Assembly: GCA_964510525.1 (NCBI GenBank)
Contig: CAZECE010000141.1
Location: 9,338-73,337 of the forward strand
Direction of reading: 5' to 3'
Length of the DNA: 64,000 nucleotides
From: an uncultured Pseudomonadales bacterium
Lineage (GTDB): Bacteria; Pseudomonadota; Gammaproteobacteria; Pseudomonadales; JANQJO01
In this document: positions 27,729-59,972 of the stretch, piece by piece
How positions within the stretch are numbered: position 1 is the stretch's first letter
Layout of the letters: each line of letters begins with the position of its first letter
Notes under the pieces: model-generated
Told to the model about the DNA's origin: nothing
The model's database searches: none
The model's input: the letters and a program-made list of their open reading frames with translations, nothing else
Made by a program: the position numbers and the translations under genes

Positions 27729-27748
27729 CGTACTAAATTTTTACATAA

Positions 27749-28687: not shown

Positions 28688-28701
28688 ATTTAGAGTGTAA
28701 A

Positions 28702-31940: not shown

Positions 31941-32006
31941 GTTAGTTAAGCCTCAACATGAATACGAACATGATTAGTTTCACGCTTTTACACCAGGCAT
32001 AGTGTA

Positions 32007-32181
32007 CATCATTCCAGACATCGGGCACGTCATTCCAGATATCGGGCACGTCATTCCAGATATCGGCTTCGTCATTCCAGACTTGATCTGGAATCCAGGG
32101 GTAAAATCTCCCAATTAAAATAACAGTAGGACTCACTTCAGTGCCTCCAGCTCTGGATCCCAGGTCAAGCCTGGGATGACG
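32007..32181. repeat. CGTC-type REP-like inverted doublet preceded by three 21-bp partial copies
   Basis: CGTC-ATTCCAGA-cttga-TCTGGAAT-CCAG at 32070-98 and an inverted copy (stem ATCCCAGG/CCTGGGAT) at 32153-81. 21-bp cgtcattccagatatcgggca-like units at 32007, 32028 and 32049. Confidence 0.8.
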
Positions 32182-32211
32182 TTCCTACTTATCGTTTTAT
32201 CGTTACGAGGA

Positions 32212-33489: not shown

Positions 33490-33491
33490 GG

Positions 33492-35195
33492 TTAATGCCC
33501 TGATGTGACTCTATCGACTTCTTCAATGCTGGTAACGCCGGCTTTGATCTTCTCTAATCCAGAGGCCCTTAAATCATTAAAGCCTTCTTTTTGACAGGCG
33601 TCAGCAATTTCAATGGAATTGCCATCTTGCATGATGATTCGTGCGATTGGGTCGGTGATTTGAACCACCTCATAAATCCCTACCCGACCTTTATAGCCGG
33701 CATTGCACTTTTCACAGCCGACGGGCCCATAGACCACAGCCTCTTCGAGATCCTCCTCATCAAATCCCAGTTCGATGAGTGATTCAGGCGGAATATCAAC
33801 CGGTTCTTTACAGTTACTGCATAACCTTCTGGCCAGCCGCTGAGCGATAATCAAGGAAACGGACGTGGCGATATTAAATGAGGGCACGCCCATGTTTCTT
33901 AGGCGGGTTAGGGTTTCAGGCGCACTGTTGGTGTGTAAGGTGGATAAGACCAAATGGCCCGTTTGAGCCGCCTTGATGGCGATTGAAGCCGTTTCTAAAT
34001 CGCGAATCTCACCCACCATCACGATATCTGGATCCTGACGTAAGAAGGCTCGTAACGCTGAGCTGAAATCCAGGCCAACCTTGGGGTTTACGTTGACCTG
34101 ATTAATGCCTTCTAAGTTAATCTCAACGGGATCTTCCGCCGTCGAGATATTCCGCTCAGGGGTATTCAGAATATTCAAGCCGGTATACAACGAAACGGTT
34201 TTACCACTGCCGGTTGGGCCGGTGACCAGAATCATGCCCTGGGGTTGTTCCAGCGCATTTAAATACATGGCTTTTTGATCTTCCTCATAGCCGAGCATAT
34301 CAATACCCAGTTTGGCACTGTCTGGATCCAGAATCCGCAAACAGATTTTCTCCCCCCAGAGCGTGGGAAGGGTATTGACCCGAAAATCAATGGCTTTCTT
34401 GGCGGAAACTTTCAATTTAATCCGCCCGTCTTGCGGAATTCGGCGCTCTGAGATGTTCATTGAGGACATCACTTTTAAACGCGCCGCTATTTTGCTGGCC
34501 GTATTAACGGGAGGTCGGGTGATTTCTTTTAAAATACCATCCGATCGAAAGCGTACTCGGTAGGCTTTTTCATAGGGTTCAAAGTGAATATCGGAAGCCC
34601 CGATTTTGATGGCATCAAATAAGACTTTATTGACGAATTTAACAATGGGGGCATCTTCAGCGCCATCATCATCAACGTCACCTCCGCCATCAACATGGAC
34701 GTCGCCATCCAGCTCGACCAGTTCGTCGTCATCAATGTCTAAGCCGCCGCTGCTGCTATCAAAGAGTTGTTCGATGGTGTCGCTCAGTTTATCGAAGGCC
34801 ACCACAACGGGATCGATGTTCAGTCCGGTATTAAATTTGATGTCATCGAGGGCTTGTATGTTACTCGGATCCGCCAGAGCCACATAGAGGATGCTGCCAC
34901 GCTTAAATAAGGGCAGAACCAAATGCTTTTTGATCAGTTGTTCTTGAACCAAATCGACCGGCATGTGGCTGGGGTCGATCGATTCAAGTAACAGCAGGGG
35001 AGTACCGAACTCTTCACTGGCGGCTTTAGCGACTTTTTTAGCCGCAACCAAATTATTGGTAACCAAATGCTCGACGAGAGAGACTTTTTCTTTACGCGCC
35101 GCCTCTTCAGCCTCAGCCAAAGTGCTCTCTTCGATGATCTCTTCTGCGACTAAACGCATACCGAGCGCACTGAACGTTTTTGAACTGGCTACCAT
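33492..35195 (-). CDS. pilB: Type IV pilus assembly ATPase
   Basis: GPTGSGKT, AEDPVE, LRQDPD, TGHLVLSTLHTN, Zn-binding CSNC/CEKC. Confidence 0.97.
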   Translation of the reverse strand: MVASSKTFSALGMRLVAEEIIEESTLAEAEEAARKEKVSLVEHLVTNNLVAAKKVAKAASEEFGTPLLLLESIDPSHMPVDLVQEQLIKKHLVLPLFKRGSILYVALADPSNIQALDDIKFNTGLNIDPVVVAFDKLSDTIEQLFDSSSGGLDIDDDELVELDGDVHVDGGGDVDDDGAEDAPIVKFVNKVLFDAIKIGASDIHFEPYEKAYRVRFRSDGILKEITRPPVNTASKIAARLKVMSSMNISERRIPQDGRIKLKVSAKKAIDFRVNTLPTLWGEKICLRILDPDSAKLGIDMLGYEEDQKAMYLNALEQPQGMILVTGPTGSGKTVSLYTGLNILNTPERNISTAEDPVEINLEGINQVNVNPKVGLDFSSALRAFLRQDPDIVMVGEIRDLETASIAIKAAQTGHLVLSTLHTNSAPETLTRLRNMGVPSFNIATSVSLIIAQRLARRLCSNCKEPVDIPPESLIELGFDEEDLEEAVVYGPVGCEKCNAGYKGRVGIYEVVQITDPIARIIMQDGNSIEIADACQKEGFNDLRASGLEKIKAGVTSIEEVDRVTSGH

Positions 35196-39740: not shown

Positions 39741-41672
39741 CTAAATATTTAAAAGGCTGTATTCTGTCTTTTCAATTAACATTTGGTATATTTTTTTCTG
39801 ATTGGCGTTTAATTTTTCGACATTTAATTGTTGGAGTAATTCCTTGCTTTTGTTAAGTTTATTTGATTGAAAGAGCATGATTGCCATTTCTAGTTGGTGA
39901 GAATAATTATTTGGTTCAGTGTTAATGGCTTTTTTTAAGTAGTGTAAGGCTATCTCCGGAGTACCTTGAGATTCTATGTAATGCGCAATTTGAGAATAGA
40001 TGTGAGCTTTAAAATAAGGCAGAACTGTTGGATTATCTTCAAAAGCCAACACAATTTTATTGATAAGAGCAGTTTTTGTTTTGCAGGCCTGATTAATGTT
40101 ACAAATAAAAAATTCCTGGATGCGCTTCATGTTTTCGCGCTCTATTTGGACGGTTTTTATTCTGAAAAGTAGTTCTTCAACCCAGGCGTCTTCGGGGGGA
40201 GCACCTACTGATTCATTCAACCTAAGCAGAGCAAAAAGTCCGGATAAGTCGATGTCCAAGTTTAGGTATGTTTGTTCGAAAGCCTCTTTAGCCCGTATGT
40301 AGTTTTCAGATCTGGCGGAGGGCGATTCTTCAAACTGTAACGATAAATAATACCATCTCCCAGCATTGTGTTGTGTGCGATTTGAGCTTGGATTCTTTAG
40401 TGCTTCTGATGCTACAAGGCTTGGCATGTCTTTCCAGTGTTGAGCTCTGAGTGCAGTTGCGCTCAGTAAAATGAGAAAAATAATAGGTAGAATGATGTTG
40501 GCCTTCAAGTTCATATGTGTTATTTCACATGCCTTGATAAGCAGGCCTGAAACTGCTAATAAAATCCCTATCATTGGGAAATAATTTCGATGTTCGTGTA
40601 CGAGTTCGAGAGATAGAATACTGGATTCTATGCTGTGGCTGGTAAGAAACCACAGAGTTCCGAAAAAGAACAATGGTACTGATTTCCGGAATTTAAATGC
40701 TCCTAAGATGACAAAAATCCAAGCAAAAATAGAGAAAGCGGTCGTAGGCTCAAGTAAACTGACAGACTTTTTTATATCATCGTGAAAAAGACTCATTTTT
40801 AGAATATTGGGCAATATTATTTGGTATACGTAAAACCAGAGAACCCTTGTTTGGGTCATGAGTCTTTCATAGATGGTGTAACCACGATTGCTGTAGATAT
40901 TGACCCACCAATCCCAGTTGAAAGCAATACTGATCAATAGGATTGCTATGATCAGCCAGCAACTGCTAACTATACAAGTTAATATAGAGCGCTGTTTGGG
41001 ATCTTTGGTTTCTTTTTTAAAGAAAACGGTTTCTGTTGCCAAGATAATAAAGCCGATAACCACACCATTTTCTTTGCATAGAATGGCGCATATACCAAAA
41101 ATCAAGCACAAGAAAAATGGAAATAAATGATAGCCTTGGTGGTTGATTAAAGTTATACGCCACTTTAAATAAAAGCTGTAGCTCAATACCATAAAGAAAA
41201 AGCACATAGTGGCCATGCGTTGGACAACATAAAGTACTGATGTGAGATTAAAGGGGTGGGCGGCCCAAACAATAGCAAGAAAAATGGGCAGCTTATTTCT
41301 TGCGAAAATTAAGTGTGATTGGTTCTCATCTCTGAAAACTATTCTCATTAACAGAGTCAAACACCAAGCAAGCGCAAAGGTATTAGCCAAGTGTATGATT
41401 AGATTCGTTACTTTGAAGGGGAATGGGTCAAGGCCAAAGTAATATTTTGTAATGGCTAAGGACAAAATGGGAATCGGTCTGCCAAGGGGACCAGTTTCTG
41501 AAAGAAATGCTATTTCTGCTAGTGAGCTGGGGCTTATGTTTTTAAGTATGATGTCTTCGTTTTCTACTAGCGTAGGAAAATCATCGAAAACATAAGGGCC
41601 GTTGAGGGCTGGGGCGTATGCAATTAAAACTAATATTAAAAATGGAAGTAATCTAAGGAGTGTGAGCTTCAC
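39741..41672 (-). CDS. GT-C multi-TM glycosyltransferase with TPR-like tail (TfpW/TMTC-like), directly downstream of pilA
   Basis: YVFDDF acidic motif after TM1, GRPI, HPFNLTSVLYVVQR, KENG, EHRNYFP; about 11 TMs then helical repeats. Confidence 0.75.
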   Translation of the reverse strand: MKLTLLRLLPFLILVLIAYAPALNGPYVFDDFPTLVENEDIILKNISPSSLAEIAFLSETGPLGRPIPILSLAITKYYFGLDPFPFKVTNLIIHLANTFALAWCLTLLMRIVFRDENQSHLIFARNKLPIFLAIVWAAHPFNLTSVLYVVQRMATMCFFFMVLSYSFYLKWRITLINHQGYHLFPFFLCLIFGICAILCKENGVVIGFIILATETVFFKKETKDPKQRSILTCIVSSCWLIIAILLISIAFNWDWWVNIYSNRGYTIYERLMTQTRVLWFYVYQIILPNILKMSLFHDDIKKSVSLLEPTTAFSIFAWIFVILGAFKFRKSVPLFFFGTLWFLTSHSIESSILSLELVHEHRNYFPMIGILLAVSGLLIKACEITHMNLKANIILPIIFLILLSATALRAQHWKDMPSLVASEALKNPSSNRTQHNAGRWYYLSLQFEESPSARSENYIRAKEAFEQTYLNLDIDLSGLFALLRLNESVGAPPEDAWVEELLFRIKTVQIERENMKRIQEFFICNINQACKTKTALINKIVLAFEDNPTVLPYFKAHIYSQIAHYIESQGTPEIALHYLKKAINTEPNNYSHQLEMAIMLFQSNKLNKSKELLQQLNVEKLNANQKKIYQMLIEKTEYSLLNI

Positions 41673-41791
41673 AAAGTTTGTTTCTCAATAGAAAGATGGG
41701 ACTTCTTCTTATGATATCTGTCTAAGGTGCTGTTGATTTAGATATTTATTAAGTGTTCCATATTAATTATATTTAACCGAAAATTAAAAAC

Positions 41792-41827
41792 AAAACAGGC
41801 TCCATAGCACGCTATGGAGCCTGTTTT
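41792..41827 (-). terminator. Intrinsic terminator after pilA
   Basis: Perfect 16-bp inverted repeat aaaacaggctccatag-cacg-ctatggagcctgtttt. Confidence 0.9.
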
Positions 41828-41838
41828 ATTAAGAGCTA

Positions 41839-42318
41839 TTAGATTCGACAATCAGTTGGTAAATACCGATCAGGGATGGTTGTGTTATCTGTCGCAGCTC
41901 CAGCTTGATTGACTCCAGCTGCAGGAAAGGCAGCACCACCACATATCCATACAAGGTTCTGTGCAGTATTTTCAGCAGGGTAGATTGTCAAAGTAGTACC
42001 TGTTATGGCTGCGTTAGCTCTAGCACCCATGGCTACATCGATTTCACCGCTGTCACCAATATCAATTTGGGTTACATAGTTGCCATCATAACTGATAGCT
42101 GTGGCTAAACCTGCAGTGGCGTTATCATTCGGTAAGAAGCCTCGAGCGGCATAATAGTCTGAAATAGCCGTTTTGAACTCACCAGCCATCGCCATAGCTT
42201 CTGTAACTTGAGCTCGTATCGTGTAATCTTTGTATTGCGGTACAGCTACAGCAGCCAAAATGCCGATAATAGCAACAACAATCATTAATTCAATAAGCGT
42301 AAAACCTTTCTGTTTCAT
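41839..42318 (-). CDS. pilA: Type IVa major pilin
   Basis: [29 protein letters not shown] with Glu+5, and a C-terminal disulfide loop (WICG...LPTDC). Confidence 0.97.
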
Positions 42319-42827: not shown

Positions 42828-43976
42828 ATGAAAAGAGAATTTCTACTTTTTGCTAGCAGTACAGTTATTTGCTTACTACTAACTGGAATAGTAATCAAAA
42901 GTTTTTTTCCACAACTTGTATCTACAAATACTGATTTACAGTTAGTACAAATTGATAAAAAAGTCCCCGCTTATTTTGAACATATATTTAGGCTTTCTGA
43001 TTACAACGCTCAAAAATTTATATTACAAGATCCAATAACTCGTGTCAGGGCTGCACCTCTTTTTGATATTGGGCCGAATGCATCGATGGGTCCAAATGAT
43101 CTTTTAGGGTTTCGGAATAAATCTATCCCTAATAAGGCTGATGTTGTTTTTATTGGCGATAGTCAAACTTATGGGAATAACGCATCTATTAATGAAAATT
43201 GGCCAGCCCATTTTTTAAAGAATTCTGTTGCACATTCTTCTGGTTATTCAATGTCAGTAGGGGGTTGGGCTGCTTTACAATATTTTTATATGTCTAAATT
43301 TACAGTCGTTTTTAATCCTAAAACGGTGATAATTGCTTTTTACTCAGGAAATGATTCATTAGAAAGTTTTGGTTTAGCCTATGCTTCGGCATATTGGCAA
43401 GATTTTCGTATTGACCCTAATTTAACAAGCGATGCCATGCCAAAAGTAAATTTTCCACCAAAAGAAGAAGAAATTTGGGGGGTGAGGTTTGACGAAGGGG
43501 ATCCTATTGCTTTTACCCCTACACTCCGACTGTCTTCAAATGCAAACACCCCGGCAGCGATGACGGGTTGGAAAATCATGATGAATACTATGCAAGTATT
43601 GGATGATAGCTTAAAAGGCCTGGGTTCTAGCTTAAAAACAGATTTTTTCGTTACCGTTATTCCTACTAAAGAGTTGACTTATTCGGAACGTATTAAGCGT
43701 GATTTTGGACAAAAACAACTAATTGATCCAATATACCAAACATTAGTTGAGCGTGAGCAAGCTAACATTGAGCTGTTCCAGCAATCAATGCAGTCTTTAA
43801 CTGTGATTAAATTCATCGATGTAGTTGAACCCCTAAAAAATGCGGCCCTTTTGTCCTTAGATTTATACCCTAGAAATCCAGATGGGCATCCATTACCTGA
43901 AGGTTATCAAGTGATTGGTCGCTCTCTTGCTAGAGAAGTTTATTCATTAAAAAATCTTGAGGCTGAAACTAAATAG
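42828..43976 (+). CDS. Membrane-anchored SGNH-family protein
   Basis: N-terminal TM, GDSQTYG, GGW, YSGND and DGHP catalytic blocks. Confidence 0.8.
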   Translation: MKREFLLFASSTVICLLLTGIVIKSFFPQLVSTNTDLQLVQIDKKVPAYFEHIFRLSDYNAQKFILQDPITRVRAAPLFDIGPNASMGPNDLLGFRNKSIPNKADVVFIGDSQTYGNNASINENWPAHFLKNSVAHSSGYSMSVGGWAALQYFYMSKFTVVFNPKTVIIAFYSGNDSLESFGLAYASAYWQDFRIDPNLTSDAMPKVNFPPKEEEIWGVRFDEGDPIAFTPTLRLSSNANTPAAMTGWKIMMNTMQVLDDSLKGLGSSLKTDFFVTVIPTKELTYSERIKRDFGQKQLIDPIYQTLVEREQANIELFQQSMQSLTVIKFIDVVEPLKNAALLSLDLYPRNPDGHPLPEGYQVIGRSLAREVYSLKNLEAETK

Positions 43977-45019
43977 TGCGTTTCAAGATGGTTTCGATAA
44001 GCATACTGATTAAGAATATATTGACCTCGTGCTTATCTTTATTGCTTATAGTTGCCGTAATTGAAATTTTGCTGCAACTCATGCCATTCGTTTCCCATGC
44101 TCCTGAGACGATCTCTATTAATATGGATCAGCCTATTAAGCGCTATAAAGTGCATGATGAGTTTGTTTATGCAAAAGGTCGATTTGGAGACATTGTACAA
44201 AAACATAAAACTAATGAACTGGGTTTCAATACGCCTATCTCTTTTATAAAAGATAAACCGACTCATTGTATGATTGGAGATTCCTATGTAGAGGCGATGC
44301 AGGTAAGCTCAGATGACTCTTTTCATGGTCTATTGAATCAAAATGATGTGTCTGTTTATCCAATAGCATCCAGTGGATCGCCTTTAAGTCAATACATTGC
44401 TTATGCAAAGTGGGCTATAAGAGAATTTAATTGCCAAAAATTGTTTTTTTTCATTATTGAAAATGATTTTGATGAGAGTTTAATATCCGTTAAAAATGCA
44501 CCAGGTTTCCATTACTTTAATGAAAAAGGGCTGCTTACTTTGGTGGAGCACAAAAAGTCTCAATTAAAGGATGGTTTGAAAAACCTTGCTTTAATTAATT
44601 ACTTGCACACAAACCTCGAAATTTCTCGGCTTATTTCGCAGAATCAATCGAGTGACAACAGTTTTGATTCAGACTCTCTAGATAGAAAAGTAAAGAATTC
44701 AATTCACGCCATAGATTTTTTTTTCGAGCATCTACTAAGAATTTCTTTTTCGTTGCAGGATGTAGTTATGGTGTTGGATGGTGATAGGCACTCTATTTAT
44801 AACAATTACACTGATAGGCAAGGGTATAACGCTGTAGTTTATGATTACTTTAAGGACAAGCTAGATGCGTTAAACATCGAAAAGATCGACTTGCACCCCA
44901 TTTTTTTTCAACATTACAAAGAAAATAATAATCAGTTTAACTTTAAGACCGACTATCATTGGAATGAAGTGGGCCACGAGGTTGTCTCTAAAGCATTATT
45001 GACATCAAATCTGATGTAA
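43976..45019 (+). CDS. Membrane-anchored SGNH/AlgX-like protein
   Basis: N-terminal TM, GDSYVEA, ENDF, DYHWN. Confidence 0.8.
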   Translation: MRFKMVSISILIKNILTSCLSLLLIVAVIEILLQLMPFVSHAPETISINMDQPIKRYKVHDEFVYAKGRFGDIVQKHKTNELGFNTPISFIKDKPTHCMIGDSYVEAMQVSSDDSFHGLLNQNDVSVYPIASSGSPLSQYIAYAKWAIREFNCQKLFFFIIENDFDESLISVKNAPGFHYFNEKGLLTLVEHKKSQLKDGLKNLALINYLHTNLEISRLISQNQSSDNSFDSDSLDRKVKNSIHAIDFFFEHLLRISFSLQDVVMVLDGDRHSIYNNYTDRQGYNAVVYDYFKDKLDALNIEKIDLHPIFFQHYKENNNQFNFKTDYHWNEVGHEVVSKALLTSNLM

Positions 45020-45057: not shown

Positions 45058-46893
45058 TTAATCCAATTCGTATTGGGTTTCATATCTGGTGCTTAATGCC
45101 GGGTTTTGGTCATCTTTATACATGACATGGTTACCTATAACCAATACATCTAAGCCTGTTCCCATGAAACATTTAAAGGCATCTTCAGGGGATTCAACAA
45201 TGGGCTCACCTCTAACATTAAAAGAGGTATTCACTAAAATTGGACATTCTGTCAAGTCATAAAATTTTTGCAGTAAACTATGATACATCGGGTTAGTATC
45301 TTGGTGGACTGTTTGAATACGTGCGCTGTCATCGACATGTGTGATTGCTGGAATTACAGAGTTTTTAATATTAAGTTTGTCGATACCAAACAACAGCTTC
45401 TGGTCTTCTGTGAGCGGTACTTTGTGTTGATCCAAGATTTCAGCGACTAACAGCATATAAGGGCTATCAGTAGTTAAATCAAAGTACTTGTATAAATAAT
45501 CAGCCAAGATCGAGGGCGCGAAGGGCCTAAAAGATTCTCGAAATTTTATTTTTAAGTTTAAATTTTTCTGCATGGTTTCAGATCTTGGGTCAGCCAATAT
45601 AGATCGGCCCCCTAGAGCTCGGGGTCCAAATTCCATACGCCCTTGAAACCAGCCTACGGCCTTTCCTTCTGCAAGTGCTTCAGCCGTTTTTCTGAGCATT
45701 ATCTCGTCTTCAACATAATCAAATTGAGCACCCAGTTGCTCCAGTTGCTGACGGGTGTCTGAGTCACTATATTCTGTTCCCAGATAAGCGCCTTGCATGG
45801 AATCTGGCTTCATAATGTTTCTGGGTTGTGCTTTTTCAAGGTGCCAATAAGCTAGGGCGGCTCCAACAGCTCCTCCGGCATCGCCTGCAGCGGGTTGAAC
45901 CCAAAGAGACTCAATGGGCGTATGTTTTAAAATCTTGCCATTGGCCACACAGTTTAGAGCAACGCCACCTGCCATGCAGAGGTTAGGAATTTTATATTCC
46001 TTATAAAGGTGACTAATCATCTTTATTAAAACAGTTTCAGTGACAGCTTGTACGGATGCGGCTACATCCATATGAAATTGAGAAAGCTCGGACTCTGATT
46101 CTCTAACAGGGTGATTAAATAAAGCTGAGAACCTTTTGTTGGTCATTCTTAGCCCTGTACTGTAATCAAAATAGTGTTGATTTAACCGGAATGAACCATC
46201 TGCTTTGATGTCGATTAGATTATCTAAAATTATATTTTGATAAATAGGGTTACCATAAGGGGCAAGTCCCATGACTTTGTATTCACCGCTGTTAACTTTA
46301 AACCCTAAATAATAAGTAAATGCAGAATACAAAAGCCCCAATGAATGGGGAAAATGTATTTCTTTTTCAATGGAAAGATTGTTGTTATCTCCGATGCACA
46401 GTGCCGTTGTGGTCCACTCACCCACGCCGTCAATAGTGAGAACAAGGGCTTTTTCAAAAGGTGATGGAAAAAAAGCGCTGGCAGCATGGCTAATATGGTG
46501 CTCTGAAAATCGGAGTTTTTCTTCAAAATTGATGTTTGAATCAATTTTTTTTAGAGATTCAATTAGACTTTTTTTTTGGAAGAGTTTTTCTTTGACCCAA
46601 ATAGGAATCGAGTGCGTAAAAGACTTAAAGCCAAAGGGCGCATTAGCAACGTAGGTTTCCAATAGGCGTTCAAATTTTAGAAAGGGTTTGTCATAAAATA
46701 CAATATTATCAATTTCGTTGAGTTTTAGGCTGGTTTCATCAAGTAATCGTATGATGGCATTATGAGGAAAACTAGCATCATGTTTTATTCTGGTAAACCG
46801 TTCTTCTTGTGCAGCAGCAAGAATACTTCCATCTTTAATGATGGCGGCCGCGCTATCGTGATAATAACCAGAAATTCCTAATATGATCGACAT
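45058..46893 (-). CDS. O-carbamoyltransferase (NodU/CmcH/SxtI family)
   Basis: HDSAAA, QEERFTRIKH, HHISHAASAF, EYKVMGLAPYG, GRMEFGPRALGGRS, RESFRPFAP, NTSFNVRGEPI. Confidence 0.95.
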   Translation of the reverse strand: MSIILGISGYYHDSAAAIIKDGSILAAAQEERFTRIKHDASFPHNAIIRLLDETSLKLNEIDNIVFYDKPFLKFERLLETYVANAPFGFKSFTHSIPIWVKEKLFQKKSLIESLKKIDSNINFEEKLRFSEHHISHAASAFFPSPFEKALVLTIDGVGEWTTTALCIGDNNNLSIEKEIHFPHSLGLLYSAFTYYLGFKVNSGEYKVMGLAPYGNPIYQNIILDNLIDIKADGSFRLNQHYFDYSTGLRMTNKRFSALFNHPVRESESELSQFHMDVAASVQAVTETVLIKMISHLYKEYKIPNLCMAGGVALNCVANGKILKHTPIESLWVQPAAGDAGGAVGAALAYWHLEKAQPRNIMKPDSMQGAYLGTEYSDSDTRQQLEQLGAQFDYVEDEIMLRKTAEALAEGKAVGWFQGRMEFGPRALGGRSILADPRSETMQKNLNLKIKFRESFRPFAPSILADYLYKYFDLTTDSPYMLLVAEILDQHKVPLTEDQKLLFGIDKLNIKNSVIPAITHVDDSARIQTVHQDTNPMYHSLLQKFYDLTECPILVNTSFNVRGEPIVESPEDAFKCFMGTGLDVLVIGNHVMYKDDQNPALSTRYETQYELD

Positions 46894-46925
46894 GTCTTAT
46901 GTTTCTTATATTCGTAAAACAGATT

Positions 46926-47075
46926 TTAAAATAATGTGTAAATAAATGGTGCCACTGCCGAGCCTTGAGCTAAGACAATTAAACCACCAAAAACTGAAAT
47001 CACAACAACGATAGGCATCAGCCAATATTTTTTTCGAATTTTTAAAAATTGCCAAAGCTCTTTAATAAAGGACAT
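46926..47075 (-). CDS. 49-aa membrane peptide, DUF5989/SxtK-like (absent from ORF track)
   Basis: Hand translation: MSFIKELWQFLKIRKKYWLMPIVVVISVFGGLIVLAQGSAVAPFIYTLF*. Lies between the sxtJ-like gene and the carbamoyltransferase, same strand. Confidence 0.88.
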   Translation of the reverse strand: MSFIKELWQFLKIRKKYWLMPIVVVISVFGGLIVLAQGSAVAPFIYTLF

Positions 47076-47084
47076 AATTTGACT

Positions 47085-47504
47085 CTAAAATTGATTTTTC
47101 ATGGGCTGGATCGGATGAGTGGATTTGTCTCGTGAGATCCAGTAGCTTTCTAAATTTTTATCATAATGCTGATGTATTAAGTCCCCTTTAATCAGCCTCA
47201 TTAGTAACCCGGTGGGAGTAACCACACAGAAAAAAATGAGTCCCATAATAATTGGAGAAATGATCTTGTGAAGTAACAGGCCAAATTTAAACCAATAATA
47301 ATTTGGCATTCTAAGTATTTTTGGGTAAATAACTGAGATAACAAGAATGATTGCGCCGCAACTTATAGCCCAAAGCCTAATTTGATTTGAATAAAGCAGC
47401 GGCCATAAGCCGATAATCATAAAGACTAGGGTAAAGACGATGCCAAAACTGCGTTCTGATGGCAAAGTGGTATTATTTACTGGTTCAGTACTTTTAGAAT
47501 TCAT
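47085..47504 (-). CDS. SxtJ-family membrane protein
   Basis: ERSFG, two or three TMs, WFKFG.LL...SPIIMG.IFF.V.TP.GLLMR, SYWI.R...MKNQF. Confidence 0.85.
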   Translation of the reverse strand: MNSKSTEPVNNTTLPSERSFGIVFTLVFMIIGLWPLLYSNQIRLWAISCGAIILVISVIYPKILRMPNYYWFKFGLLLHKIISPIIMGLIFFCVVTPTGLLMRLIKGDLIHQHYDKNLESYWISRDKSTHPIQPMKNQF

Positions 47505-47593: not shown

Positions 47594-48487
47594 ATGAGAC
47601 CATTTACAATAATAATTCCCGCTAAAAATGAAGCCAGAGGACTGACTATTTTACTGCCTCAGCTACGTAACTTGTATCCTGATGCACAAGTAATCGTAGT
47701 TAATGATGGCTCAACAGATGAAACTGAAGAAATCTGCCAGAAGAACAAGGTGGAAGTTTGTACCCACCCTTATTCTCAAGGAAATGGAGCAGCTATTAAG
47801 GCCGGTATTAGAGCGGCTAGGCATAGTACTGTTGTCTGTATGGATGCAGATTGCCAGCATCGCTCCGAAGATATTAAGTTTCTTATCGAAGGAATTGAAA
47901 AGGGCTACGACATGGTAGTCGGTGCTCGGAGTCGTTCCTCTCAAGCAGGCTCTCTTAGGGCTTTTGGTAACGGGTTTTACAATAGGCTGGCAACCTGGAT
48001 GGTTGGGCAACCGGTAAAAGATTTAACTTCTGGCTTTAGGGCGGTCAAGACTAACAAATTCAAACAATTTTTAGATTTACTGCCCAATGGTTTTTCTTAT
48101 CCTACCACCATAACCATGTCTTTTTTTCGTTCGGGTTATACCGTCAAATATCATCCCATTGTTGCACCTGAGCGGATTGGTACCAGTCATTTAAATATTT
48201 GGAAAGATGGTACGCGTTTTTTGCTGATTATTTTTAAGATTGGAACACTGTACTCACCATTAAAAATTTTCACGCCCGTCAGCTTTTTAGCTTTTGCACT
48301 GGGGTTACTTCATTATGCAAATACCTATATCACAGCTCGAACCTTTACCAATATGAGTGCTCTGTTATTTGTAACGGCTGTTTTGGTGTTTTTAATGGGG
48401 CTAATATCTGAGCAGATAGCGTCACTTCTTTATACTGTCAGCAGTAAGCAACAAAAGGTGCAAGAGCTAGAATCTGATGACCGATAA
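47594..48487 (+). CDS. GT2 polyprenol-phosphate glycosyltransferase (DPM-synthase-like)
   Basis: IIPAKNE, VNDGSTD, GNGAAIKAG, DADCQH, DLTSGFRA, two C-terminal TMs. Confidence 0.88.
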   Translation: MRPFTIIIPAKNEARGLTILLPQLRNLYPDAQVIVVNDGSTDETEEICQKNKVEVCTHPYSQGNGAAIKAGIRAARHSTVVCMDADCQHRSEDIKFLIEGIEKGYDMVVGARSRSSQAGSLRAFGNGFYNRLATWMVGQPVKDLTSGFRAVKTNKFKQFLDLLPNGFSYPTTITMSFFRSGYTVKYHPIVAPERIGTSHLNIWKDGTRFLLIIFKIGTLYSPLKIFTPVSFLAFALGLLHYANTYITARTFTNMSALLFVTAVLVFLMGLISEQIASLLYTVSSKQQKVQELESDDR

Positions 48488-54572: not shown

Positions 54573-54707
54573 TTGATTCATTATACTACAGGCTGATTAA
54601 GTAAAGTCGTTGTTTTTATTATATATATCCTATACTTGAAAGGTTTTCTCGGTAAATAGGTTGGGCTTTTAAAAGATAACGAGGGAAAACCTTAATTAAC
54701 TAGGAAA

Positions 54708-55700
54708 ATGCACATGAAAAAAGTGCAAACTAAGGCGGCTTTATTTGGTTTAGTAGCTATTGTGGCTGGTTTTTCGCTGTACTTATTCGGCGTACTTCTT
54801 GGGCCTATCCGATTGCTTTTGGGTAACCCGGAATTTATAAAGGCCATCAACGAATTCATTGTTTGGTATAGCGGTGTGCCAGTAGTCATAGGTATTGCGC
54901 TCATTGTTTTTGATTTTTTGACTAAGGTAAATTGGCATCGGGCAACCAGACATATTCGGTACCAGAAATTATTCAATCCCAGTATTTCGGTCGCCTTAAC
55001 AGCATATAACGATGAGTTAAGTATCGCTGATTCTGTAAAAGACTTTCTAAAACAACCCAATGTTAAGCGAGTCATTGTCGTTAGTAATAATAGTACTGAT
55101 GGCACAATGGAAAAGGCTGAACAAGCTGGTGCAATAGTGCTCAATGAATCTCAGCAAGGGTATGGTGCTTGTGTGTATCGCGCCTTGACAGAAGCCTGTC
55201 AGTATGAAGATTCCGAATTGGTATTGTTGTGTGAGGGCGATTGTACGTTTTCAGCAGAAGATATCCCGAAATTTTTATCTTACATTGATCATGCGGATAT
55301 TGTGAATGGCACTCGCATTGTTGAAAAACTTCAAGAAAGCCAAACTCAGTTATCAACTTTTATGCATTATGGTAATTTATTTGTTGGGAAATTATTAGAA
55401 GCAAAATATTTAGGACAGGTAACGCTAACAGATGTGGGAACCACATACAAGGTGTGTCGGAAAGAACCATTACGTGCATTGCTACCAAAATTGAATTCTG
55501 CCTTTAATTTAACATTTAATCCTTATTTTCTAGATCAAGCACTGTTAAATGGAATGACGATTGTTGAATGTCCGATTGCTTTTTTACCCAGAGTCGGTGA
55601 AAGCAAAGGCGGCAATATCAATAATAAAGTCGCTTTTCGATTAGGGGTGGGCATGATTTTAGGTATCTTGTCTGATTGGAGGTTTTCACGCCATGGGTAA
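54708..55700 (+). CDS. GT2 glycosyltransferase with N-terminal TMs (polyprenol-phosphate sugar synthase-like)
   Basis: LTAYNDE, NNSTDGT, QGYG, EGD (DxD variant), TDVGTTYK, RVGESK. Confidence 0.82.
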   Translation: MHMKKVQTKAALFGLVAIVAGFSLYLFGVLLGPIRLLLGNPEFIKAINEFIVWYSGVPVVIGIALIVFDFLTKVNWHRATRHIRYQKLFNPSISVALTAYNDELSIADSVKDFLKQPNVKRVIVVSNNSTDGTMEKAEQAGAIVLNESQQGYGACVYRALTEACQYEDSELVLLCEGDCTFSAEDIPKFLSYIDHADIVNGTRIVEKLQESQTQLSTFMHYGNLFVGKLLEAKYLGQVTLTDVGTTYKVCRKEPLRALLPKLNSAFNLTFNPYFLDQALLNGMTIVECPIAFLPRVGESKGGNINNKVAFRLGVGMILGILSDWRFSRHG

Positions 55701-56331
55701 TGAGTACCATGAATCACGTTTAACGTATGATCCAAAGCGAGAAATTTTATGGAAGACATTGGTAACATACTATTTCCAGAAAATGATTTCTGAAGATGCG
55801 CATGTGTTAGAGTTAGGGGCCGGTTATTGTGATTTTATTAATCATGTTAAAGCAAACAAAAAAATGGCTTTGGATCTCTGGCCTGGGGTAGTTGATTATG
55901 CAGCTAATGATGTTGAGTGTGTGGTTTCGGATATTGCTGGAGAATTAGATATTTCAGACAACACTTTGGATTTTGTGTTTGCGAGTAATATTTTTGAACA
56001 TATTTCACAGGAAAAGTTAGCTGAAACGCTGTTAAATTTGAAAAAAAAATTAAAGAAAACGAGTACTCTTTGTATTTTGCAACCAAATTATCGATTTGCT
56101 TACAAAGAGTATTTTGATGATTATACGCATGTATCTATTTGGTCGGATGTTTCATTAAGTGATTTTTTACACGTTAATGGCTTCAGAGTTAGGCGTATTC
56201 ACCCTGGTTTTTTGCCATTATCAATAAAGTCCCGTCTGCCAACGCACCCTTGGTTGATTCGAGCGTATCTAAAAAGCCCCATTAAACCCTTAGCTAAACA
56301 GATGTTATTGTTTGCGGAGCCAGTTTCGTGA
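55693..56331 (+). CDS. Class I SAM-dependent methyltransferase
   Basis: LELGAGYCDF, FASNIFEH, QPNYR.AY.EYFDDYTH. Confidence 0.85.
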   Translation: MGNEYHESRLTYDPKREILWKTLVTYYFQKMISEDAHVLELGAGYCDFINHVKANKKMALDLWPGVVDYAANDVECVVSDIAGELDISDNTLDFVFASNIFEHISQEKLAETLLNLKKKLKKTSTLCILQPNYRFAYKEYFDDYTHVSIWSDVSLSDFLHVNGFRVRRIHPGFLPLSIKSRLPTHPWLIRAYLKSPIKPLAKQMLLFAEPVS

Positions 56332-58115
56332 ATGTATTAAGTCTATTTAACAGCAATAGGCGTTTTATAAATGTTGTGGCTATTGTATTTTTGGTTTTTT
56401 ACACGATCTGGCTATATTATCCAACAATTTATTTTGATTTTGTTTATTTTGATGACGATCGTTTGCTGTTGAGGCATTCGATGTTATACGAATGCACAAC
56501 GCTTAGTGCGTGCTTTAATGCTTTCTTAACTCATATTCCGGAGTGTGAAGAACCACTGGTTATCAGAAATTTAACTTGGTTGTTGGATGCGAAGATATTT
56601 GGGTTTCAGAACCCGATGGGGTATCACATATCAAATATACTTTACCATGCATCTGTAGTAGTTCTGGCATTTGTTTTTCTTCTTAGATTTACCCGTCACT
56701 TTTATCTTTCTTTTCTTGTGACTTTTTTATATTCATCTCTAGCTATTCACACTGAATCTGTTGGGTGGATCATGGGAAGAAAGGATATTTTGTCTGGTGT
56801 TTTTTTATTTCTCCTTCTAAATACAGAAATATCTTATTCAAAAGCAGTTAATTATAAAAATAAGTACTCTTTATATTTTATAACCATTTTGTTAGTAACA
56901 ATGGCCTGTTTATCTAAAATATCTTCACTTTCTTTTTGCTTTGTTTTATTGATGTTTAAATTGATAACAAATAAAGATGCTTGTCATGATTATTTTTTCA
57001 GAAGATCAATTTTAGAAGTCATACCACATTTTACAATATCATTATTCTTGTACGTGTGGTATGCCTCGATTTTAGAGCCTATTGTGCTTAATAAAACCGC
57101 AGAGTTTTCTTATTTTGAAAAAATTTATATTTTACTTTTTGTAAATCCATTAGTATTTCTAAAATACTTAATGTTAATACTCAGTCCAGCTAAGCTTTCT
57201 GTAGTTTATAGTTGGCAGGGTATCCATGAAGTTAATAGTGCCTTTGATTGCGTTCTATCTGCAGCAGTACTATTTACACTTTCTGGATTTTTGATTTTCC
57301 TATTTAAAAAGAGGTTCTACAAGTCTGTTTTCTGTTTTTTATCTGTGTTGGCTTTGCTTGCTCCATATTCTAATCTTGTAAATTTTGGATGGTGGTATGC
57401 TAATAGATATATATACGTGGCTTCATTTTTTTTAATTGCAGCAATCGGTATAGCTATAAAAAAAATAGCTAATAGTCGCGTTAGAAAAATATTGGTTAAT
57501 ACTTTTTTTATTTGTATTCTTTTGATAAATACCGTGCAAGCAAAACTACATATTCCTGCATGGAAAAATATTGATAACTTTTGTGATCACCATCTGGCCG
57601 TCTCTCAAACTAAACAGGCTACAATTAGCTGGTGTATTAAAATTGTCGAAAATTACTCTAATTATTATCCTGATGAAAAAAGGCAAGCCATTTTAAAGAG
57701 ATGGTTAGAGATCGCATTAGAATCTTCAAAAGAAGTTTTTGATAATGATTTAAGAATTAGAAAAGATTATGCATTACTAAATTACAGTATTGGGCGCTTA
57801 TATTTTTTGTTAGGCGTATCGTTAGATAAGCAACTTTACTATTACAAACGATCCTTTGAATTAGATTCAGATTATTTAGAATCAAGCTTTACATTAGCTC
57901 AAGCTTATTTAGAAAAAATCAGATTAAATAATGGAGAACATAAAAATAATAAAGAGTGGATTGAATTGTCGGCAATGTACTTCGTACACTATTTTAAAGA
58001 GGTGGATTGGAATTTAGAGGTGCAAAATCAATATGACTTATTTTTTCCTATGTTCTCAAATTATCCAGAAGTACAAAAAAGACTTGAAGATGTAAGAAGC
58101 GAAAGAGTTAGGTGA
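56328..58115 (+). CDS. TMTC-like GT-C glycosyltransferase, paralog A
   Basis: FVYFDDD, YHISN, HTESVGWIMGRKDIL, SKIS, ANRYIY; multi-TM with helical C-terminal tail. Confidence 0.75.
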   Translation: MNVLSLFNSNRRFINVVAIVFLVFYTIWLYYPTIYFDFVYFDDDRLLLRHSMLYECTTLSACFNAFLTHIPECEEPLVIRNLTWLLDAKIFGFQNPMGYHISNILYHASVVVLAFVFLLRFTRHFYLSFLVTFLYSSLAIHTESVGWIMGRKDILSGVFLFLLLNTEISYSKAVNYKNKYSLYFITILLVTMACLSKISSLSFCFVLLMFKLITNKDACHDYFFRRSILEVIPHFTISLFLYVWYASILEPIVLNKTAEFSYFEKIYILLFVNPLVFLKYLMLILSPAKLSVVYSWQGIHEVNSAFDCVLSAAVLFTLSGFLIFLFKKRFYKSVFCFLSVLALLAPYSNLVNFGWWYANRYIYVASFFLIAAIGIAIKKIANSRVRKILVNTFFICILLINTVQAKLHIPAWKNIDNFCDHHLAVSQTKQATISWCIKIVENYSNYYPDEKRQAILKRWLEIALESSKEVFDNDLRIRKDYALLNYSIGRLYFLLGVSLDKQLYYYKRSFELDSDYLESSFTLAQAYLEKIRLNNGEHKNNKEWIELSAMYFVHYFKEVDWNLEVQNQYDLFFPMFSNYPEVQKRLEDVRSERVR

Positions 58116-58166
58116 GTATTAGAATACTAATGATTTTTTTATTGCATATATATTCTTTTTTTTAAA

Positions 58167-59972
58167 ATGAATAAATTAACTCAACTAATTAGAAGTAATC
58201 AAATATTAAGTATGGTAGTTGTTGCTTTTTTATTTGGTTACTCTATTTTCTTGTATCTTCCAAGCATCCAATTCGATTTTGTTTATTTTGATGATGATCG
58301 CTTGGTATTAAGGCAGGGTGTTTTTTATGACTGTGGAGGTTTTAGTGATTGTGTTAAGGCGTTTATTAATTACATTCCTACCGCAGAAGAGCCTTTAATA
58401 TTTAGAAATGTAACATGGTTAGTGGATGCCAAAATCTTTGGTCATGAAAATCCATTTGGTTATCATTTAGGAAATGTTGTATACCATGCTTTGGTAATCG
58501 TATTCGCTTTTATTTTTCTTTACCGTTTTACAAAAAAAATCATTCCATCTTTTCTAGCTGTTTTCTTATACGCCTCTCTGGCTATTCATACCGAGTCAGT
58601 GGGTTGGATTATGGGTCGTAAGGATATTTTATCAGCTCTTTTTTTATTTTTACTATTAAACGTGGAGCTTTATTATTTTAAAGCTAAAAAATTAAGAAAC
58701 AAAAGTACATATTACTCTCTGACTCTGCTGCTTATTTCTCTGGCTTGTTTGTCGAAAATTTCAGCCATTACTTTTTGTATTATCTTATTTCTATTTAAGA
58801 TATTGCTTAATATACAAGAGAATAAAATTCTTTTAAAAAAATCTCTGTTAGAGACTTTACCTCACATATTCGTGTCTGTTTTGATTTATCAATGGTATAG
58901 CGGGGTTCTGGAAGTCAGTGGTGTACTAAAAATTTCGACACAATTTTCGTTGATGGAAAAGCTGTACATTCTGTTTGTCATAGATCCGCTGGTTTTGATC
59001 AAATACATTTTTTTAGTTTTAAGCCCACATAAATTATCAGTTTCATATCAGTGGTTGGGTATTGAAGAAAAGCTTAGCGTTTACGATTATGGGCTTTCTT
59101 TTTTGGTTATTATAACCTGCTTGTTAATATTGTGTCATTTAGTGATAAAGAAAAAGTATAGAATTAGTTTCTTTTTTCTCTCTTTATTTTTTTTACTCAT
59201 TCCTTATTCGAATATGGTTAATTATGGTTGGTGGTATGCCAATCGATATTTTTACGTAGCCTCATTTTTTCTGATTTCTTCGGCTGTGATTTTTTTAAGT
59301 GATTTTACTTTTAGTCGAATAGCTAAAATAGCAATGTCTTTTCTTTATATTAGTTTAATTGTCATTAATGTTGTACAAATAAAAGCACATTTACCTGTTT
59401 GGAAAGATTCAGATTCACTTTGTAATCATCATTTGTCCATTTCAAGATTTAAGAAAGGGACTGTTAAATGGTGTATGAAAATAATAGAAAATCACTCTTA
59501 TGATTTGCCTAAAGAACAAAAGAATAAGATGCTCTCTAAATGGTTATCGTTGGGTATTAAGGCTTTAGAATTTGAAAATGATGATGAATATAGTGTCACT
59601 AAAACGGATTTCATACTTAATTATCGTGTGGGGCGGTATTTGTATTTGTTGAAAGCTCCTTTGGATCAGCAAATACATTATTTCCAACGTTCTTTTGAAT
59701 TAAATCCAAAATTTCCAGATGCGAGTTTTGCCTTAGCTCAGTCTTATTTTGGGTTGGTAAGTATAAATAGCGATTCACTAGTGGCTAATAAATTTGCAGA
59801 GATCTCTGGTCAGTATTTTATGCGGTATTTTGAAAATGTAGTATGGAACCCATCGGCTGAAGCTCAGTTTGAACCAATTTATTTGGCGTTTTCGGATCAT
59901 CCGGAAATTCAAAGTAATCTCTTAAAGATAAAAAATGTAAAAACACAAAAAGTAAAAAATGGTTTTCACTAG
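58167..59972 (+). CDS. TMTC-like GT-C glycosyltransferase, paralog B
   Basis: Same motifs as paralog A, aligned by eye over the full length (FVYFDDD, EEPL, HTESVGWIMGRKDIL, GWWYANRY). Confidence 0.75.
   Translation: MNKLTQLIRSNQILSMVVVAFLFGYSIFLYLPSIQFDFVYFDDDRLVLRQGVFYDCGGFSDCVKAFINYIPTAEEPLIFRNVTWLVDAKIFGHENPFGYHLGNVVYHALVIVFAFIFLYRFTKKIIPSFLAVFLYASLAIHTESVGWIMGRKDILSALFLFLLLNVELYYFKAKKLRNKSTYYSLTLLLISLACLSKISAITFCIILFLFKILLNIQENKILLKKSLLETLPHIFVSVLIYQWYSGVLEVSGVLKISTQFSLMEKLYILFVIDPLVLIKYIFLVLSPHKLSVSYQWLGIEEKLSVYDYGLSFLVIITCLLILCHLVIKKKYRISFFFLSLFFLLIPYSNMVNYGWWYANRYFYVASFFLISSAVIFLSDFTFSRIAKIAMSFLYISLIVINVVQIKAHLPVWKDSDSLCNHHLSISRFKKGTVKWCMKIIENHSYDLPKEQKNKMLSKWLSLGIKALEFENDDEYSVTKTDFILNYRVGRYLYLLKAPLDQQIHYFQRSFELNPKFPDASFALAQSYFGLVSINSDSLVANKFAEISGQYFMRYFENVVWNPSAEAQFEPIYLAFSDHPEIQSNLLKIKNVKTQKVKNGFH

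Follow-up and report, generated by a model that had tools for sequence, protein, structure and literature searches.

A tandem pair of predicted GT-C glycosyltransferases in a conserved GT2–methyltransferase cassette of an uncultured Pseudomonadales bacterium

What do two adjacent, similar membrane proteins of an uncultured Pseudomonadales bacterium transfer, and onto what? We analysed a 64,000-nucleotide stretch of its DNA (contig CAZECE010000141.1 of assembly GCA_964510525.1; hereafter, the window), in which a first-pass annotation had read the two genes, here called A and B, as tandem TMTC-like GT-C enzymes that duplicated to take different donors or acceptors and are fed by two GT2 proteins. 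Taking the explanation as a whole, we think it likely that A and B are an active pair of inner-membrane GT-C enzymes sharing one methylated donor supplied by the GT2 enzyme GT2b, with an exported glycan as acceptor. The features on which this reading draws are listed in Table 1.

Table 1 Coordinates and assignments of the window features discussed in the text
Feature	Coordinates	Strand	Description
pilB, pilC, pilD	31062-35195		
Third GT-C	39741-41672	-	Distant TMTC-like GT-C with C-terminal TPR domain; directly downstream of pilA, outside the A/B operon
pilA	41839-42318	-	Type IVa major pilin gene; Pfam Pilin, N_methyl
GT2a	47594-48487	+	DPM1/GtrB/ArnC-like GT2 with C-terminal TM helices; Pfam GT2
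GT2b	54708-55700	+	Family-2 glycosyltransferase with N-terminal TM hairpin; Pfam Glycos_transf_2
Methyltransferase	55693-56331	+	Soluble class-I SAM methyltransferase; Pfam Methyltransf_11/23/25
A	56328-58115	+	GT-C glycosyltransferase paralogue; 595 aa, GTG start, 11 TM helices (residues 9-412), TPR-like domain (residues 415-594)
B	58167-59972	+	GT-C glycosyltransferase paralogue; 601 aa, A-like architecture predicted from homology to A
MBOAT	59959-61332	+	AlgI/DltB-like membrane O-acyltransferase; Pfam MBOAT 6e-32
SGNH	61332-62459	+	AlgX/AlgJ-like periplasmic O-acetyltransferase partner; Pfam ALGX 5e-23, Lipase_GDSL

Paralogy and fold of A and B

The description of A and B as adjacent proteins of about 600 residues with shared motifs was accurate: FVYFDDD (residue 38), EEPL (74) and HTESVGWIMGRKDIL (141) occur at equal residue numbers in both. 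The two proteins align over their full length with 46% identity and 69% positives (BLASTP, E = 0), and the strand opposite their genes contains no competing open reading frame of 100 aa or more. Identity is 52% across the membrane domain, reaching 69% in TM2-4 and 62% in loop 1, and falls to 36% in the C-terminal domain, so that the divergence claimed for this duplication, which is lineage-specific, is greatest at the C terminus. In the comparison of substitution types proposed at the outset, synonymous sites are saturated (pS 0.71) and non-synonymous divergence is far lower. The 15-residue peptide HTESVGWIMGRKDIL is identical in A and B, yet its codons differ at 10 of 15 positions; together with the saturated synonymous sites, this indicates that its identity has been kept by selection. 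Recent gene conversion as the source of the shared peptide is ruled out by the same two observations. The cysteine pair noted in the first extracytoplasmic loop is present in both proteins as Cys56/Cys62, with Cys73 extra in A, but was not found in their closest outside homologues; Cys194/204 and Cys419/436 are also common to A and B.

The AF2 models (pLDDT 90 and 84) agree with the GT-C fold that had been proposed. In the model of A (pLDDT 90.2, pTM 0.91), 11 TM helices are followed by helical hairpins spanning residues 415-594; for B, a like build is predicted from its homology to A. When the membrane part alone was compared with the PDB using Foldseek, the best 27 matches were all GT-C proteins, with probability 1.0 for the top matches, and these top matches were AglB, Pmt4, PglB, ArnT and STT3. 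TM-scores against AglB, Pmt4 and STT3 were 0.53-0.57, the highest being that of Pmt4 (0.57), and the Foldseek E-values were weak (best, 2e-3). The C-terminal domain resembles TPR proteins in structure (TMt about 0.6) and gave sub-threshold TPR matches at the sequence level; it is a degenerate TPR, and the subfamily as a whole does not conserve it. Neither Pfam nor NCBIfam had a model that scored above threshold on A or B, and sequence searches with the A/B family detected no solved structure.

D42 and D43, the DD motif reported just past TM1, do not vary among 14 sequences and are kept in at least 90% of 35, and Y280 and P287 (Y-x6-P) are the sole two invariant columns of the 35-sequence alignment. 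R151 and K197 are conserved in the wider family, in which R360-xx-Y363 is nearly invariant, whereas the invariance of D153 applies within the close subfamily. Every subfamily-invariant residue is retained in B as in A. A, in its model, and B, by homology, combine a multi-span membrane domain of the GT-C fold with an acidic motif in the first extracytoplasmic loop (D42-D43). We predict that both are active inner-membrane glycosyltransferases of the GT-C type, forming an as yet uncharacterised variant within a known kind of enzyme.

Relation to TMTC, PMT and TfpW enzymes

The TMTC-like label describes A and B in part. TMTC1-4 (CAZy GT105, Pfam TMTC_DUF1736) are eukaryotic cadherin O-mannosyltransferases with Dol-P-Man as donor, whereas A and B are bacterial, but the build is alike: 11 TM helices and a C-terminal TPR domain, degenerate in A and B, on the non-cytoplasmic side. 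When compared with the TMTC motif set M1-M7 of Eisenhaber 2021, A and B keep M1 (DD, loop 1) and M3 (H-T-E, with R-x-D nine residues on). The spacing of this HTE...R-x-D segment, in which the first-pass annotation had seen a resemblance to TMTC, is the same as that of T134/R143/D145 in human TMTC3. M4 (loop-3 Lys kept, Glu absent), M6 (first Pro only) and M7 (R-xx-Y in loop 5, Asn replacing Glu) are partial; a single Pro is left of M2 (SHKSYRP), and M5 (DW) is absent.

The profile searches suggested at the outset, for PMT_2 and DUF1736, did not favour that label. TMTC_DUF1736 matched the right loop of A (residues 278-318) at 15.1 bits (E 0.023), below the cut-off of 27; it gave no match on B in the Pfam search and none in ten top family representatives sampled. 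With DUF1736 below threshold or absent and M2 and M5 missing, we did not assign A and B to the TMTC family proper. Neither Pfam PMT nor PMT_2 matched A or B; PMT_2 matched 6 of 35 aligned relatives and 4 of the 10 sampled representatives, two of those ten above the cut-off. A and B share the GT-C fold with the PMT/PMT_2 enzymes (GT39), among which Pmt4 was the best TM-score match of the membrane part of A, but lack a MIR domain. This group also offers a precedent for a tandem pair in the Pmt1-Pmt2 heterodimers, in which paralogues act together.

Among characterised bacterial enzymes, TfpW comes closest as an analogue. This type IV pilin O-D-arabinofuranosyltransferase of Pseudomonas aeruginosa group IV has 646 aa and 11 TM helices, a TPR domain in the periplasm, a DDX motif that is essential and a Y-x6-P motif in loop 4 (bioRxiv 10.1101/2020.04.19.049825). 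A and B correspond in D42-D43-D44 (the loop-1 DDX), Y280-x6-P287 and the C-terminal TPR-like domain. TfpW uses a polyprenyl-phosphate monosaccharide made by DPPR synthase, DprE1 and DprE2, not by a GT2 and a methyltransferase. Its gene directly follows pilA, a place that the third GT-C occupies in the window, whereas A and B begin 14 kb from pilA. The link between TfpW and A/B is remote, running through the placement of the third GT-C, its FDD and Y-x6-P motifs and its hhalign match to the A/B family (probability 99.3%, E 2e-20) rather than through direct sequence comparison.

In three other loci (L043, L044 and L046), a homologue of the third GT-C lies between a pilin gene and a GT2 gene, in that order; in L045, the homologue is preceded by a 162-aa gene and the GT2 lies one gene further on. 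In L004, a 58%-identical homologue of GT2a lies beside a homologue of the third GT-C. NCBIfam matches of GT2a itself (AglJ, PpgS, PgfS and ArnC) are all below cut-off. The first-pass annotation had both GT2 enzymes feeding A and B; conserved synteny supports that role for GT2b, but GT2a more likely partners the pilin-adjacent GT-C. The methyltransferase, the co-operonic O-acetylation genes and the third, pilin-adjacent GT-C had not featured in that annotation.

The cassette and its probable donor pathway

The gene order around A and B is conserved. Among 28 subfamily loci, a GT2b homologue adjoins the GT-C gene in 27, with 56-65% identity where the order is GT2-MT-GT-C, and a methyltransferase homologue lies between the two in 25, giving the full three-gene cassette; in L016, the GT2 and the methyltransferase are fused in one ORF. 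These loci span at least five phyla (Verrucomicrobiota, Lentisphaerae, Myxococcota, Bacteroidota and Gammaproteobacteria). In Verrucomicrobiota, housekeeping genes in conserved synteny surround the cassette, which has a second PMT_2-like GT-C next to it and is not part of a polysaccharide locus. The best NCBIfam matches of GT2b (AglJ, Dol-P-hexose transferase and PpgS) are below cut-off, and the best solved relatives of its family profile are the Dol-P-Man synthase 5mlz (6e-11) and ArnC (~1e-5). On the strength of the conserved adjacency of this DPMS/ArnC-like GT2, GT2b is a putative synthase of the donor, which would be a polyprenyl-phosphate sugar.

GT2 synthase, flip and GT-C transfer to an exported acceptor follow one another in the same way in the GtrA/B/C, ArnC/ArnE-F/ArnT and GT136 systems. 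The general mechanism of three-component periplasmic glycosylation, including the GT136 system, is established (PMC11127046). Here too, a GT2 gene with predicted synthase activity lies two genes upstream of A, but a constant methyltransferase gene sits between synthase and GT-C, and the GT-C, duplicated in the window, has a TPR-like domain instead of a CBM or an ArnT-type periplasmic domain. A dedicated small flippase gene of the GtrA, ArnE/F or MprF type was not found in the window's island; candidates in related cassettes are an EamA protein (ArnE/F-like) in L027 and an LPG_synthase_TM protein in L004.

In the pathway that we propose, GT2b would load a monosaccharide onto polyprenyl (undecaprenyl) phosphate at the cytoplasmic face. 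The methyltransferase, whose sequence has no TM segment or signal peptide, would most likely methylate the sugar, our conjectured substrate, before it is flipped. A and B, with catalytic loops and TPR-like C-terminal domains predicted to face the periplasm, would then pass it on to periplasmic acceptors. Most likely, A and B act on different periplasmic targets, to which they pass a sugar, possibly methylated, taken from a polyprenyl-phosphate donor. Conservation within the pair is highest in the donor-side loops and lowest in the C-terminal domain; a common donor is therefore probable, with the difference between A and B lying in the acceptor or the acceptor position.

The operon runs on beyond B. 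Overlaps of 4-14 nt connect GT2b, the methyltransferase and A (8 nt between the first two; 4 nt between the methyltransferase stop and the start codon of A), and likewise B, MBOAT and SGNH (14 nt between B and MBOAT). MBOAT also matches NCBIfam DltB (9e-53, below cut-off), and in the Oleiphilaceae locus L027 an MBOAT homologue adjoins the cassette, with an SGNH homologue also there. Because the operon continues into this O-acetylation pair, the six genes from GT2b to SGNH look like a module for post-export decoration, and A and B probably act in late sugar decoration outside the cytoplasm.

Candidate acceptors and alternative readings

The weakest step of the proposed pathway is its last. The most likely acceptor is an exported glycan, either the surface polysaccharide of the island or a pilin-borne glycan, in preference to bare protein. 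The TPR domains and the TfpW/TMTC homology, which point towards protein acceptors, were counted against it.

It is a serious, if somewhat improbable, alternative that A and B are TMTC/TfpW-like protein O-glycosyltransferases that attach a single sugar from a polyprenyl-phosphate donor to Ser/Thr of proteins in the periplasm or at the surface, for example type IV pilin, with the TPR-like domain binding the protein; a protein acceptor was also the reading of the first-pass annotation. The island's own pilin is a possible glycosylation target, and a distant paralogue of A and B lies right after its gene, as do homologues behind pilin genes in at least three other genomes, but A and B themselves are not beside pilA, and a pilin neighbour was found in 0 of 28 cassette loci. 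The build shared with TMTC and TfpW, with DD and Y280-x6-P287 in place, argues for a protein acceptor, as does the housekeeping setting in Verrucomicrobiota; against one stand the lack of TPR conservation across the subfamily and the sharing of an operon with polysaccharide-type O-acetylation genes.

The two proteins might also be obligate partners, like Pmt1-Pmt2 or POMT1-POMT2, rather than independent enzymes with different acceptors. PMTs are described as functioning as dimers (PMC7759382), and self-interaction has been reported for TfpW (bioRxiv 10.1101/2020.04.19.049825). A heterodimer is nevertheless unlikely: the GT-C is single-copy in nearly all cassette-bearing genomes, and therefore a homomer or monomer suffices, even though A and B are tandem genes of one operon with all conserved residues in both, and a second, independent tandem duplication occurred in the Taylorina symbiont.

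In a third reading, which we consider quite unlikely, A and B would act like ArnC/ArnT systems on a conserved part of the envelope, either a lipid or a wall component, such as lipid A, LPS core or peptidoglycan. Parallels are RgtE/RgtA-D of Rhizobium and FlmF2/FlmK of Francisella. Against such an acceptor weigh the setting of the window cassette, a surface-glycan island of low GC that is apparently mobile, the absence of nearby lipid A genes, and the lack of TPR domains in ArnT-type enzymes. For it speak ArnC and ArnT as solved relatives of GT2b and the membrane domain, the ArnE/F-like flippase candidate of L027 and the Verrucomicrobiota synteny with its second PMT_2-like GT-C. That A and B are non-enzymatic TPR scaffold or membrane proteins with superficial GT-C similarity is highly improbable: no curated model exceeds threshold and Foldseek E-values are above 1e-3, but the top membrane-domain fold matches are all GT-C at probability 1.0, a family of more than 100,000 cluster representatives conserves the positions DD, R-x-D, K and R-xx-Y, and linkage of the genes to a GT2 of the donor-synthase type is strict.

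As a rather doubtful extension, we tentatively suggest that the cassette is a so-far undescribed cross-phylum pathway carrying a methylated sugar from polyprenyl-phosphate to envelope proteins or glycans, part of the core genome in Verrucomicrobiota and mobile in Gammaproteobacteria, with A and B its duplicated, acceptor-diversified version. If so, A and B would offer tractable bacterial models of the TMTC enzymes, whose structures are unsolved. A well-behaved homologue could also stand in structurally for the human TMTC O-mannosyltransferases. The defined synthase-methyltransferase-transferase cassette gives a concrete handle on sugar and acceptor, and the natural tandem pair could test how TPR GT-C enzymes shift acceptor specificity. 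Our literature search found a single bacterial TPR GT-C enzyme that had been studied experimentally, TfpW. The bacterial family is very large: the membrane-domain profile alone retrieved more than 136,000 cluster representatives.

Sequence, family and predicted fold of A and B

The first-pass annotation described two adjacent GT-C genes, A and B, which are present on the same strand (table), and the paralogy that it claimed is borne out by 46% identity and 69% similarity over the full length of the proteins. The three motifs that it quoted begin at residues 38, 74 and 141 of A and likewise in B, and the cysteine pair of the first loop, Cys56/Cys62, is common to both, as are Cys194/204 and Cys419/436. 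In the 15-residue HTESVGWIMGRKDIL that is identical between the two, 10 of the 15 codons differ, and gene conversion was rejected as its cause on these differences; synonymous sites are saturated (pS 0.71), with a dN of 0.43. The identity is therefore due to selection rather than to a recent conversion event. A dN/dS comparison, which had been proposed as a check, indicates purifying selection but yields no usable figure, because saturation makes any numeric ratio meaningless beyond that. TM2-4 (69% identity), loop 1 (62%) and loop 4 (56%) are the segments best preserved between A and B, and the C-terminal domain (36%) has diverged most, a pattern in the sequences that would fit a common donor and diverged acceptor recognition.

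Across three alignments, with 11, 14 and 35 members of the family, conservation is strong at F38, D42, D43, P76, H100, H107, V145, R151, K197, Y280, P287, P346, R360 and Y363, and D153 is invariant across five close relatives. A and B each retain the full set, so neither has the look of a dead copy. A neighbour-joining tree built on the membrane domain, in which the two are 52% identical, groups them as sisters. A gammaproteobacterial Taylorina symbiont (locus L004) carries its own, younger tandem pair of this type, with membrane domains 79% identical; this pair is separate from A/B, and tandem duplication has therefore occurred independently at least twice.

Family searches placed A and B only broadly. 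In Pfam, both the TMTC_DUF1736 match of A (15 bits versus a threshold of 27; residues 278-318) and the TPR match of B fell below threshold, and NCBIfam assigned none of A, B and the neighbouring methyltransferase to a family. Searching the PDB with the sequence of A returned weak TPR matches only; with a full-length profile of the family, TPR proteins overwhelmed the results, and a membrane-only profile found no match in the PDB. Close relatives are rare (three proteins, 28-34% identity) and are followed by a long tail of membrane proteins bearing TPRs, part of which matches PMT_2 or carries the JGI name 'protein O-mannosyl-transferase'. A profile restricted to the membrane domain matched 136,389 cluster representatives (threshold E ≤ 1e-3); among ten top matches sampled, all had canonical C-terminal TPRs, four matched PMT_2 and none matched DUF1736. 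This breadth, with the TPRs of the sampled matches, places A and B, as a divergent branch, in a bacterial 'GT-C plus TPR' superfamily of very large size whose build is TMTC-like. The TMTC likeness proposed in the first-pass annotation is real at the superfamily level, but A and B fall short of the TMTC family itself.

Structure prediction upheld the GT-C assignment. The AlphaFold2 model of A, built with a 35-sequence alignment (pLDDT 90.2, pTM 0.91), has eleven membrane helices in residues 9-412, juxtamembrane helices in loops 1 and 4, and helical hairpins at residues 415-594 that resemble TPR proteins (TMt ~0.6). The best non-TPR matches of the full model in the PDB were PglB, STT3, AftA, Pmt4, Pmt1/2 and DPY19. 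For a membrane-only model (pLDDT 84), the first 27 matches in a row were GT-C enzymes, including AglB (TMq 0.53), Pmt4 (TMq 0.57), PglB, AftA, ArnT, STT3, DPY19 and EmbB; the best of these had a probability of 1.0, but the best E-value was only 2e-3. The predicted fold of A is therefore GT-C, and the refuting outcome named in the first-pass annotation, a fold of another type, did not occur.

In the eleven-helix topology, the conserved residues map to extracytoplasmic loops 1-5, the loops in which Eisenhaber et al. located TMTC motifs M1-M7. A and B have M1 (DD) and M3 (RxD), and the spacing from the threonine of H-T-E to the arginine, nine residues, equals that of human TMTC3 (T134 to R143). 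They retain only the lysine of M4 and the first proline of M6, have M7 as N-R-xx-Y, and lack M2 and M5. Y280-x6-P287, the sole two fully invariant columns among 35 sequences, matches the Y-x6-P 'proline-rich' motif in loop 4 of TfpW, and D42-D43-D44 matches its loop-1 DDX motif (bioRxiv 10.1101/2020.04.19.049825).

Coordinates of the features discussed, in the window and in related loci
Feature	Sequence	Coordinates	Strand	Description
EPS-type export locus	window	26325-31070		upstream of pilD
Low-GC island	window	35600-62500		between pilBCD and sthA; separates pilA from pilBCD
Third GT-C paralogue	window	39741-41672	-	643 aa, no Pfam match
Third paralogue plus pilin gene	window	39741-42318	-	
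382-aa and AlgX-like SGNH proteins	window	42828-45019		stop/start overlapping
Carbamoyltransferase trio	window	45058-47504	-	
Carbamoyltransferase	window	45058-46893	-	part of trio
Hydrophobic ORF	window	46926-47075	-	49 aa, MSFIKELWQFLKIRKKYW...
SxtJ-like membrane protein	window	47085-47504	-	part of trio
Other GT2	window	47594		
Antisense ORF	window	54692-55144	-	150 aa
GT2b	window	54708		family-2 glycosyltransferase
Methyltransferase	window	55693		SAM-dependent
A	window	56328-58115	+	595 aa, GTG start
B	window	58167-59972	+	601 aa
MBOAT	window	59959		
AlgX-like SGNH protein	window	61332		
Second GT-C	L004	5312-7138		
Tandem A/B-type pair	L004	8101-11731		Taylorina symbiont
Candidate flippase	L004	12395-13381		LPG_synthase_TM (MprF-type)
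Fused ORF	L016	6918-8879		653 aa
Candidate flippase	L027	5312-5698		128 aa, EamA/ArnE-F-like
TfpW-like GT-C locus	L045	2592-6599		Endothiovibrio

Operon, island and a cassette shared across phyla

GT2b, the methyltransferase, A, B, the MBOAT gene and the AlgX-like SGNH gene follow one another in this order; neighbours overlap by 1 to 14 nt except at a single 51-nt gap, an arrangement that indicates one operon. Promoter and terminator scans of the region performed no better than on shuffled sequence; no RNA sequencing runs containing the region were found, and the DNA runs that contain it all come from one biofilm metagenome. An ORF antisense to the start of GT2b is almost certainly spurious.

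The operon lies in a low-GC island (36%, versus 45.6% over the first 35 kb; A/B ~31%) that is rich in surface-glycan genes and was probably acquired horizontally. It encodes three GT4s, two AsnB-like amidotransferases, a carbamoyltransferase, methyltransferases, a MurJ/Wzx-like flippase and two AlgX-like proteins. The carbamoyltransferase forms a compact trio with a small hydrophobic ORF and an SxtJ-like membrane protein, which suggests O-carbamoylation of a glycan. The second AlgX-like SGNH protein follows a protein without a Pfam match, and the two might form another O-acetylation pair, one whose partner protein is not an MBOAT. Elsewhere in the window, an EPS-type export locus encodes an initiating Bac_transf phosphoglycosyl transferase and a Wza-like Poly_export protein, followed by 519-aa and 269-aa proteins, neither with a Pfam match.

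Scanning 185,579 species genomes with the subfamily-specific peptides V[GAS]WIMGRK and [VA]N[FY]G[WF]WYA retrieved 39 related loci, none identical to the window. The source genome is thus absent from the GTDB representatives, and its organism is placed as a probable gammaproteobacterium. Homologues of GT2b and the methyltransferase adjoin the GT-C gene, with the methyltransferase in the middle, in 25 of 28 close-subfamily loci. Carriers of this cassette belong to Verrucomicrobiota, Lentisphaerae, Kiritimatiellia, Deltaproteobacteria/Myxococcota, Polaribacter and Gammaproteobacteria, and GT2 identity across phyla is 56-65% where the order is GT2-methyltransferase-GT-C. In a Verrucomicrobial MAG (L016), the GT2b-like and methyltransferase-like parts form one ORF; this reflects a natural fusion or else a frameshift in the assembly. 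MBOAT and AlgX-like genes also adjoin the cassette in Oleiphilaceae (L027), and in Verrucomicrobiota the cassette has a conserved neighbourhood of housekeeping genes, among them those for aspartate kinase and LeuA. In 13 Verrucomicrobial loci (L006-L028), the cassette is accompanied downstream by another GT-C, distinct from the first, which has ~585-608 aa and matches PMT_2 weakly. L004 also has this second GT-C beside the cassette; no homologue of it is present in the window. Candidate donor flippases occur inside the cassette in two gammaproteobacterial loci, L027 and L004; no small flippase gene was found in the island, and neither candidate is present in the window.

The enzyme class of A and B and the overall pathway logic are already known. 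Our literature search, which covered the GT2-methyltransferase-GT-C cassette, bacterial TMTC homologues and GT105, found the system described nowhere, and the cross-phylum cassette and its tandemly duplicated form appear to be undescribed in the literature found.

Proposed pathway and acceptor

The best solved relatives of the GT2b family profile are Dol-P-Man synthase (5mlz, 6e-11) and ArnC, and the best NCBIfam matches of GT2b, all sub-threshold, are AglJ, Dol-P-hexose transferase and PpgS. In a pathway following the general three-component-type scheme (PMC11127046), GT2b would make a polyprenyl-phosphate monosaccharide, and the soluble methyltransferase would probably methylate this lipid-linked sugar. 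Carrying neither a membrane nor an export signal, the methyltransferase must work in the cytoplasm, where SAM is found. The sugar would then be flipped and transferred by A and B in the periplasm, and the MBOAT/SGNH pair would add O-acetyl groups.

We lean towards an exported glycan as the acceptor, because the O-acetylation genes are co-operonic and the operon lies in a polysaccharide island. A bare protein, the kind of acceptor used by TfpW and TMTC, is nearly as likely, given the TPR-type domain of A and B and their homology to TfpW. Lipid A, core or a wall component is a further rival to the exported glycan. By analogy with Pmt1-Pmt2, A and B might act as a heterodimer. The Caldicellulosiruptor GT39 protein glycosyltransferase was rejected as a close analogue, as it has no TPR domain.

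A TfpW-like GT-C beside the pilin gene

Next to the type IVa pilin gene, on its downstream side, lies a third paralogue. It matches the A/B family profile (99.3% probability, E 2e-20); its sequence contains the motifs FDD, K-E and Y-x6-P, with a TPR at the C terminus. Its position and build are the same as those of P. aeruginosa TfpW. Among homologues read from loci L043, L044, L045 and L046, those of Marinobacter xestospongiae and a metagenome contig come after a pilin gene and are directly followed by a GT2; in Endothiovibrio, a 162-aa gene lies upstream of the homologue and a GT2 one gene further on. This arrangement is a TfpW-like cassette for pilin glycosylation.

The first-pass annotation had two DPM-synthase-like GT2s (47594 and 54708) feeding A and B. 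In the Taylorina symbiont, a homologue of the third paralogue stands beside a GT2 58% identical to that at 47594, and this synteny indicates that the latter more plausibly serves the pilin-adjacent GT-C, not A/B.

In the Endothiovibrio locus, the genes after the TfpW-like GT-C encode, in order, a protein of 673 aa matching TMEM260_N, the other O-mannosyltransferase family of eukaryotes, a GT2 fused to GtrA_DPMS_TM, and a separate LPG_synthase_TM protein.
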